Source: a virus
Taxonomy: Duplodnaviria > Heunggongvirae > Uroviricota > Caudoviricetes
DNA: 36,219 nucleotides
Virus record (IMG/VR): IMGVR_UViG_2879765931_000005
Strand: one strand, 5' to 3'
Part shown: piece by piece, positions 35,225 through 35,881 of the stretch
Layout: each line of letters begins with the position of its first letter
How positions within the stretch are numbered: the first letter of the stretch is position 1
Made by a program: the position numbers and the translations under genes
The notes under the pieces: model-generated
The model's database searches: none
The model's input: only the letters and a program-made list of their open reading frames with translations
What the model was told of the DNA's origin: nothing

Positions 35225-35881
35225 CTATTTTTTCCCTGAAGCGGAAAACATTACTACAGTACCTTGAACCTTGGTTTTAACATTCTCGAAATGCTCTGAG
35301 AGTATATGTGTTAAGCCTTCTTCGGAATCTTTTGTGTTTGAAAAGATGCCTTTCTGATTGTAAATGCGCATCAGTTTTTGACCGAAGCTATTGTGCACAA
35401 CTCCATCGCCAAGAATTGTGGCTCCGTATAGAGTTCCATCATCAGTTAAGGCCTGCGCCGCATTGCGTATTACACAGCTTTTTGTAGATATATTTCCAGG
35501 CAGGCAGTGAAGAAGGTAAAACATGGAAATGGAATCAAATTGACCATGTAACGCCGCAGGATAAGGTTCAAAAACATCATGGCTAATTTTATGTTTAATT
35601 TTTGATTCCCCAGCCCTTGTAGATGCCGCGTTCAGGCTAGCTTCGTTCAAATCCATTAAAGATATCAGACTACTCTCAGGTACGTGAGTAAGGTAAAACC
35701 CAGTTCCAACACCAATATCCAGATGGTTGTTACCTAAATGTTCCAGAAAGTGTGGAAGAAGGTGTTCCTTTGTAGGACATCCCCATGCAAGCCGATTTGA
35801 TACTCCCAAAACCCACCAGTCATAAAGCTTTAGGGTAAGTGGTGTGTAAATTTTAGCCCCATCATCTGTGTTTTTTTTCAT
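35225..35881 (-). CDS. Class I SAM-dependent methyltransferase (218 aa), uncharacterised
   Basis: Rossmann motif I ..NHLDIGVGTGFYL.., acidic residue after beta-2 (LMDLNE); start taken at MKKNTDDG with SD GGTGA; AT-rich; immediately upstream of ipaH on the same strand. Confidence 0.6.
   Translation of the reverse strand: MKKNTDDGAKIYTPLTLKLYDWWVLGVSNRLAWGCPTKEHLLPHFLEHLGNNHLDIGVGTGFYLTHVPESSLISLMDLNEASLNAASTRAGESKIKHKISHDVFEPYPAALHGQFDSISMFYLLHCLPGNISTKSCVIRNAAQALTDDGTLYGATILGDGVVHNSFGQKLMRIYNQKGIFSNTKDSEEGLTHILSEHFENVKTKVQGTVVMFSASGKK

Follow-up and report, generated by a model that had tools for sequence, protein, structure and literature searches.

An ipaH-adjacent methyltransferase gene as an intact copy of the common prophage moron ybcY, with a probable small-molecule substrate

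Whether a methyltransferase gene that lies directly upstream of ipaH takes part in type III secretion, or only shares its position with an effector gene, is the question raised by this locus. It belongs to a stretch of 36,219 nucleotides from a virus of the class Caudoviricetes (IMG/VR record IMGVR_UViG_2879765931_000005), referred to here at its full length as the window. The original prediction, made from the letters alone, had described an AT-rich gene of 218 amino acids with an S-adenosylmethionine (SAM)-binding motif, and had considered it as a new Shigella effector, a moron or a decayed passenger. The analysis revealed that the gene is almost certainly an intact ybcY, a common prophage moron unrelated to the function of ipaH, and that the substrate of its product is more probably a small molecule than anything else; the two parts taken jointly make a likely reading. 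The protein is already present in RefSeq and in thousands of genomes and is named ybcY in Escherichia coli K-12, and is thus a known object, ordinary in the context of the window.

The coding sequence of this YbcY-type class I SAM-dependent methyltransferase is located at 35225..35881 on the minus strand and encodes 218 amino acids, counted from the ATG that is conserved in the family. The listing of open reading frames (ORFs) agrees with the predicted position, length and placement upstream of ipaH on the same strand when the second ATG is taken as the start. This minus-strand ORF, taken at its full extent (35225..35893), has 222 amino acids from its first ATG, the start at 35893 being the one annotated for RefSeq WP_000239881.1, and the internal ATG at 35881 gives a protein of 218 amino acids starting with MKKNT. 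This second ATG (M5 of the 222-amino-acid form) is kept as the start by 28 of 30 aligned homologues and, among 82 E. coli-type loci, was lost in K-12 only, whereas the upstream ATG is mutated in nine of them, and for these reasons the 218-amino-acid start is preferred. The GC content of the gene is 40.5% (35% at third codon positions) against 50.2% for the window, which confirms its AT-rich composition. Its nucleotide sequence is 100% identical to the copy of enteroinvasive E. coli (EIEC) CFSAN029787, the identical protein WP_000239881.1 is annotated in EIEC, O157:H7 and O145 strains, and phrog_2132, annotated without function, covers 218 of the 218 positions (E = 7.9e-157). The ybcY gene of K-12 (b0562; annotated as a putative SAM-dependent methyltransferase pseudogene of DLP12) shares 99% nucleotide identity with the window gene over its entire length.

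A megablast search with a query of 669 nt showed the gene at 95-100% nucleotide identity in 3832 of 5426 complete E. coli genomes (71%), with at most four copies per genome, nearly all of them chromosomal; the carriers include K-12, commensals, uropathogenic strains and O157. The gene order in the DLP12 remnant of K-12 MG1655 is tfaD'-ybcY'-tfaX'-appY-ompT, with ybcY' annotated as frameshifted, and a 2-nt deletion removes the conserved ATG of this copy. A study of uropathogenic E. coli describes ybcY as adjoining ompT in uropathogenic and enteropathogenic strains, namely CFT073, UTI89, 536, J96, ABU83972 and E2348/69 (PMC6854850). Fourteen sequenced lambdoid phages carry the methyltransferase gene (e.g., 2G7b and ev243), as do at least 80 IMG/VR prophage contigs; in phage 2G7b, it follows the tail-fiber genes and precedes the genes for an alpha/beta hydrolase, ompT and an integrase. 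Literature searches, including those by RefSeq accession and by ipaH/prophage context, returned no functional study of ybcY.

Further sequence analyses revealed that the gene is part of a module of about 1 kb (35185..36196), common to K-12 DLP12, O157:H7, phage 2G7b and most E. coli, and 96.8-97.6% identical in loci without ipaH (blastn of the window against fetched loci). Homology to K-12, O157:H7 and 2G7b breaks at 35182-35185, and the right end of the common segment lies at 36174-36196. Directly 5' of the methyltransferase is a sigma-70 promoter-like site, TTGATT-17-TATAAT (35894..35922, minus strand), with 10 of 12 matches and the best score of the promoter scan. The K-12 ybcY/tfaX spacer contains TTGATT-17-TATAAC, reported from genomic SELEX as a constitutive RpoD promoter for ybcY that is bound by H-NS, the divergent pair being recorded as ybcY < H-NS > tfaX (PMC3946193). 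Alignment of the two promoters showed that a C-to-T change gives the window a perfect consensus -10 hexamer (35894-35899), TATAAT as compared to TATAAC in K-12, O157 and phage 2G7b, and, as judged from the sequence, this change could lead to higher expression in the lineage of the window. The consensus -10 was found in 12 of the 13 ipaH-linked loci and also in nine of the 69 loci without ipaH, and it was rejected as a feature specific to ipaH-linked copies, being rather lineage-associated. The -10 hexamer directly adjoins the first ATG, so that the transcript probably begins just 5' of the ATG at 35881 and would have a very short leader. A few bases past the methyltransferase stop lies a terminator-like hairpin followed by a U-rich stretch (35183..35219, minus strand; RNA fold -25.9 kcal/mol, z = -2.65), and it is at the 3' arm of this structure that homology breaks off (35182-35185).

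On the other side of the promoter, and divergent from the methyltransferase, an ORF of 89 amino acids (35950..36219, plus strand) corresponds to a duplicated 3' end of a tfa gene and is the equivalent of tfaX' in K-12. PHROG tfa families match its residues 36-88, RefSeq calls it a partial tfa pseudogene, and its frame varies among related loci (89, 101, 61 and 28 amino acids, and others). The methyltransferase is flanked by tfa and the tfa 3' duplicate in 78 of the 82 loci. This arrangement forms direct repeats, which in K-12 measure 157 nt at 85% identity on both sides of ybcY (5770-5926 and 6817-6973 of fetched locus L001) and in phage 2G7b 75 nt at 88% (5827-5901 and 6869-6943 of fetched locus L095); in both cases the repeats are about 1045 nt apart, and the copy across the methyltransferase from the duplicate is the 3' terminus of the functional tfa gene. 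Through such repeats, prophages could exchange the ybcY module by homologous recombination. No tfa direct repeat was found in the window, where the left copy is replaced by the ipaH cassette. Compared with K-12, the window thus shows the same promoter site, hairpin and succession of tfa 3' end, ybcY and tfa 3' duplicate, and differs in having an intact allele, a consensus -10 and a left tfa end replaced by ipaH. An own predicted promoter, a terminator-like hairpin, a deviant GC content and a site between phage genes are the marks of a moron, one of the possibilities that the original prediction had named.

The neighboring gene 3' of the methyltransferase is an intact ipaH of 547 amino acids (33266..34909, minus strand), with leucine-rich repeats and a NEL E3 ligase domain (Pfam NEL, 6e-77; LRR_TTSS; NCBIfam IpaH_Shig, 565 bits against a cut-off of 550). 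The MxiE box of its promoter, GTATCGTTTTTTTACAG, is located at 35028..35044 on the minus strand and is the single exact match to the consensus GTATCGTTTTTTTANAG in the whole window, with 0 expected by chance. It lies between the methyltransferase stop and the ipaH start, and so 3' of the methyltransferase, whose upstream sigma-70 promoter is shared with K-12; these positions bear out the earlier remark that the methyltransferase is not obviously under the control of the box. The left border of the cargo slot is a tail-fiber C-terminal/DUF4376-type ORF (32472..33086, plus strand; phrog_1141 tail fiber protein, 7.7e-75), whose EIEC counterpart is annotated as a DUF4376 protein and placed after the stf N-terminal gene. 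The matches of this ORF and of the ORF at 35950-36219 to tail-fiber/tfa PHROGs confirm that tail-fiber remnants bracket the pair of genes.

A megablast search with positions 34900-36219 revealed that ipaH adjoins the methyltransferase in only nine E. coli genomes, of the EIEC type, and that genomes without ipaH match the query only from its position 286 on, that is, from about 35185 of the window rightward. In the sampled E. coli-type loci, ipaH was beside the methyltransferase in 13 of 82 and absent beside the other 69. In O157:H7 (L096 3290-5503), the place of ipaH is occupied by a stress cassette that encodes Mn catalase, a ferritin-like protein, YciE/YciF and a con-10 stress protein; in K-12, O145 and ATCC 25922 it is empty, and the tfa and methyltransferase genes adjoin each other directly. 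The short interval from the tfa gene to the ybcY hairpin therefore appears to be a cargo slot, and its varied contents, together with the homology break at the hairpin, indicate that ipaH is one of several cargoes inserted beside an older and widespread gene. Hence, ipaH is an independently acquired neighbor outside the methyltransferase unit, and the comparison of loci, which had been suggested as a check of the effector idea, showed that the two genes do not travel together. In addition, the same ipaH was found split by an insertion of about 1.33 kb in Shigella flexneri SFBU1023 (L103 6585-7915) and also in loci L101 and L104 (E. coli ECMA0423); this insertion resembles an insertion sequence (IS) element and has a 9-bp overlap (target duplication) at 34297-34305 of the window. 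The ipaH of the window is uninterrupted, and that of EIEC CFSAN029787 is annotated as frameshifted.

Regarding the protein itself, Pfam Methyltransf_12 matched at 37.6 bits (cut-off 30; E = 3.8e-9), and Methyltransf_23, Methyltransf_25 and Methyltransf_11 were also above their gathering scores. The reported motif I DIGVGTG is present within HLDIGVGTG (GxGxG after beta1), where D, G, G, T and G do not vary among 30 homologues. The acidic residue ending beta2, D81 (LMDLN), which probably contacts the ribose of SAM, is invariant in alignments of 30 and of 84 sequences. The AlphaFold (AF2) model (predicted local distance difference test score, 89.7) consists of one Rossmann domain, which is capped by two N-terminal helices and has a beta5-beta6 lid, and shows the predicted seven-stranded beta-sheet alpha/beta fold of class I methyltransferases; the first 14 residues or so of the 222-amino-acid form are predicted to be disordered, and nothing else. 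Invariant fold residues begin at residues 12-16 of the 218-amino-acid protein, and a region for secretion or chaperone binding could hardly fit in front of a catalytic fold that starts about 10 residues from the N-terminus.

Comparison with known structures and families pointed, though only remotely, to enzymes of small molecules. The family profile matched NodS, BelI, XrdM, PmtA, UbiG and JHAMT in the PDB (E = 6e-7 to 6e-4), and individual members of the family matched BioC, UbiE, CpaM and NodS weakly. The best NCBIfam scores, 17.4 and 16.9 bits, fell far below the cut-offs of 180 and 175, and no named small-molecule family (BioC, UbiE/MenG, UbiG, NodS, CpaM or RquA) was reached. The assignment as an uncharacterized Rossmann-fold SAM methyltransferase stands, with Pfam and the AlphaFold model on its side. 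The 218-amino-acid sequence and model contain neither a (D/N/S)PP(Y/F/W) or PCQ motif IV nor an extra target-recognition domain. The segment LLHCLPG after beta4 aligns with LEHVPD of UbiG, and its conserved cysteine was rejected as a catalytic residue of the kind found in C5 methyltransferases, because this position aligns with a hydrophobic residue in UbiG. PADLOC gave no significant defense match (best, mad2, E = 0.0033, 14 bits, over the generic methyltransferase core), and the BFVD structure search returned generic viral methyltransferases only. The likeness to UbiG, UbiE, BioC and NodS (Pfam Methyltransf_11/12/25) includes the Rossmann fold, the GxGxG motif, the acidic beta2 residue, L-x-H-x-x-P after beta4, the helical N-terminal cap and the beta5-beta6 lid, although the identity is only 12-21%, far below family cut-offs. 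Moreover, the family has invariant motifs of its own that these enzymes do not share (YDWWVL, SNxxAWxC and YNxKGIFSNxxDS) and, unlike UbiG, BioC and NodS, in none of the loci examined does it belong to a quinone, biotin or Nod operon.

The search for relatives among 5.8 billion proteins returned 2296 sequences, and a second search, among 50%-identity representatives, gave 197 with E <= 1e-30, nearly all of them full-length proteins of 215-235 amino acids. Counting one genome per species, the family is present in at least 600 species, with relatives at 40-68% identity and strong residue conservation across phyla. The hosts include Enterobacter, Klebsiella, Salmonella, Yersinia, Erwinia and Pseudomonas syringae, as well as Dyella, Vibrio, Acidobacteria, Nostoc, Pseudarthrobacter and Oceanobacillus, and most of these species have no type III secretion system; a homologue from Aspergillus wentii is 45% identical. 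The homologues of Salmonella, Enterobacter, Yersinia, Erwinia, Aeromonas and Acidobacteria are chromosomal, monocistronic and located outside prophages. When the ORFs of 82 loci from diverse species were clustered, no conserved neighbor was found, the commonest being short-chain dehydrogenases (13) and LysR regulators (10), both very common families. In the absence of a conserved partner, the genomic context gives no clue to the substrate beyond loosely detoxification-like surroundings in Enterobacter, Erwinia and Acidobacteria. One relative is a fusion with a cytochrome P450; fusions in the family (P450, RCC1 repeats, N-terminal domains) were considered as a clue to function and dropped, being too few and unannotated.

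The conservation of the gene in E. coli bears on the reading of ybcY as a functionless passenger, which would persist only through its linkage to the DLP12-type remnant (ompT) and to recombining tail-fiber modules. An intact methyltransferase was found in 81 of the 82 E. coli-type loci, in contrast to the neighboring tfa remnant, which decays and varies in length. A dN/dS of 0.15 was obtained over 34 ybcY alleles, a rough value given that these alleles are closely related (dS 0.027). The gene is thus under purifying selection. Likewise, protein clustering placed 6589 member sequences in the full-length cluster of 222 amino acids, and an intact gene persists even where almost every other gene of the prophage has been lost. 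At the argU/DLP12 site of E. coli 23AR0806 (L183 3468-6354), an integrase and tfa fragments remain, with ybcY and ompT intact side by side, which suggests that both were domesticated as cargo genes. A passenger role agrees with the K-12 pseudogene, with the existence of truncated clusters (e.g., 161 amino acids with 445 members), with the H-NS-bound promoter region of K-12 (PMC3946193) and with the K-12 ybcY mutant, which had no phenotype in a Hha-toxicity screen, though that copy was already a pseudogene. The intact copies, their dN/dS and the residues conserved across phyla nevertheless make such a role unlikely. Close identity to a well-characterized housekeeping family with synteny conserved in non-pathogenic E. 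coli, or frameshifts in orthologues as a sign of decay, had been named beforehand as grounds for refutation, and these hold for the most part: the synteny tfaD'-ybcY'-tfaX' and the frameshifted copy do exist in K-12. The family is not well characterized, however, and purifying selection acts on the orthologues, the majority of which are intact, so that the idea of a decayed passenger likewise found no support. Apart from the roughness of the dN/dS estimate, three further points weigh against an active moron: the high prevalence of ybcY could stem in part from linkage to ompT and the DLP12 remnant instead of from selection on the methyltransferase, H-NS binding in K-12 may mean that ybcY is usually silent, and the hairpin at 35183..35219 was not called by a strict terminator scan.

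The alternatives that give the enzyme another target were also weighed. A new type III effector, that is, a Rossmann-fold methyltransferase delivered into host cells with IpaH, would be in keeping with the position on the same strand directly 5' of ipaH in a prophage cargo locus, with the AT-rich composition that many effector genes have, and with the disorder predicted for the first 10-14 residues. The idea is nonetheless extremely improbable, considering that K-12 and commensals are among the 71% of complete E. coli with the gene and ipaH is adjacent in nine, that hundreds of species without type III secretion and an Aspergillus have homologues, that the sole MxiE box of the window is 3' of the gene, that the promoter is an ordinary sigma-70 site conserved in K-12, and that the N-terminus is short, with invariant fold residues already at 12-16 of 218. 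Methyltransferase effectors do exist in enteropathogenic and enterohemorrhagic E. coli (EHEC) and in Shigella, namely NleE and OspZ, which are SAM-dependent, encoded on horizontally acquired DNA, and substrates of the type III secretion system that have, in published structures, a distinct, non-Rossmann fold. The window protein differs from them in being a canonical Rossmann methyltransferase that matches only Methyltransf_*/MTS models in Pfam and whose distribution is independent of type III secretion. A role in the virion or in adsorption, through methylation of tail-fiber or tail-fiber-assembly proteins, was suggested by the tfa sequences that flank the gene in 78 of 82 loci and by a DNA invertase nearby in one class of contexts. 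It is very improbable, however, as the gene is convergent to the late tail genes and has its own promoter, persists after the tail genes are lost, and has close homologues in other genera that are chromosomal with no phage genes nearby. A nucleic acid target, either phage DNA (anti-restriction or epigenetic) or rRNA/tRNA (translation or drug resistance), seems quite unlikely as well, since motif IV and PCQ are lacking and LLHCLPG aligns with LEHVPD of UbiG, the single-domain model of 218 amino acids has no target-recognition or RNA-binding extension, and the best profile matches are small-molecule enzymes, the PADLOC match to mad2 (E = 0.003) being negligible.

The remaining part of the window is a mosaic. 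Its myovirus-type left part (16658-30311) contains a terminase, a capsid-protease fusion, a contractile tail sheath and a truncated tape-measure gene, and the lambdoid tail-fiber/ipaH/ybcY block extends from about 32608 to 36219; this block follows gpJ-lom-stf in EIEC, and is preceded in the window by an IS1-like element and a transposase-like ORF (31532-32566). An IS3-family element occurs three times, at 12663-13819 (plus), 22230-23386 (minus) and 24382-25538 (plus), with ORFs of 100 and 272 amino acids (rve and HTH_21), and IS1-like ORF pairs (91 and 167 amino acids) occur twice, at 4292-4989 and 30954-31651, both on the minus strand. These repeated elements fit a degraded prophage in an IS-rich genome of the Shigella type. 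Just past the truncated tape-measure gene, an ORF of 160 amino acids (30379-30861, plus strand) lies in an island of 35-38% GC and matches phrog_5586 (annotated without function) over its full length, with no match in Pfam; it may be another moron.

According to the model proposed for ybcY, a stand-alone class I methyltransferase of a widespread bacterial family was captured by lambdoid phages and is carried as a moron between tail fibers and integrase, where the lambdoid (DLP12-like) prophages of both E. coli and Shigella have their cargo. The gene would form its own transcription unit, with the predicted sigma-70 promoter abutting the coding sequence and the hairpin past the stop, and would be silenced by H-NS at least in K-12. 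The duplicated tfa 3' end may allow the module to move between prophages by homologous recombination. In Shigella and EIEC, an ipaH cassette with its own MxiE-box promoter was inserted between the tfa gene and the methyltransferase hairpin, and the adjacency of ipaH and ybcY is therefore an accident of a cargo hotspot with no functional pairing. Other lambdoid cargo, such as lom, bor and the exchangeable effector loci of EHEC, is similarly independent, compositionally foreign and placed between the tail fibers and the prophage end, and the slot beside ybcY likewise holds interchangeable cargo (ipaH in the window, the stress cassette in O157:H7). By contrast with these loci, ybcY is a near-constant element encoding a cytoplasmic enzyme, neither a surface protein nor a secreted virulence factor. 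In the bacterial cytoplasm, YbcY would transfer the methyl group of SAM to a small molecule, a metabolite or a xenobiotic, by O-, N-, S- or C-methylation, as UbiG, UbiE, BioC or NodS do, and may thereby benefit the lysogen.

Two extensions of this model differ in what they would mean. That YbcY is a lysogenic-conversion enzyme methylating a specific gut metabolite or antimicrobial is put forward tentatively and is the less exotic and the more probable of the two, though still more likely wrong than right; if true, it would explain the retention of ybcY in about 70% of E. coli. That in Shigella and EIEC a YbcY-type enzyme was co-opted as a secreted or host-directed factor deserves hardly any credence, the evidence being strongly contrary; the lineage-associated consensus -10 together with the ipaH adjacency would support it, and, if true, no methyltransferase with a Rossmann fold would have preceded this protein among the substrates of the Mxi-Spa system. 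The gene has little weight for Shigella virulence, as it is not pathogen-specific and is tied to ipaH only by the insertion hotspot. It is among the most prevalent uncharacterized prophage-borne enzymes of E. coli, the tfa-to-hairpin slot beside it is a useful landmark for finding new prophage cargo, and knowledge of its substrate would fill a gap in the gene functions of this species.

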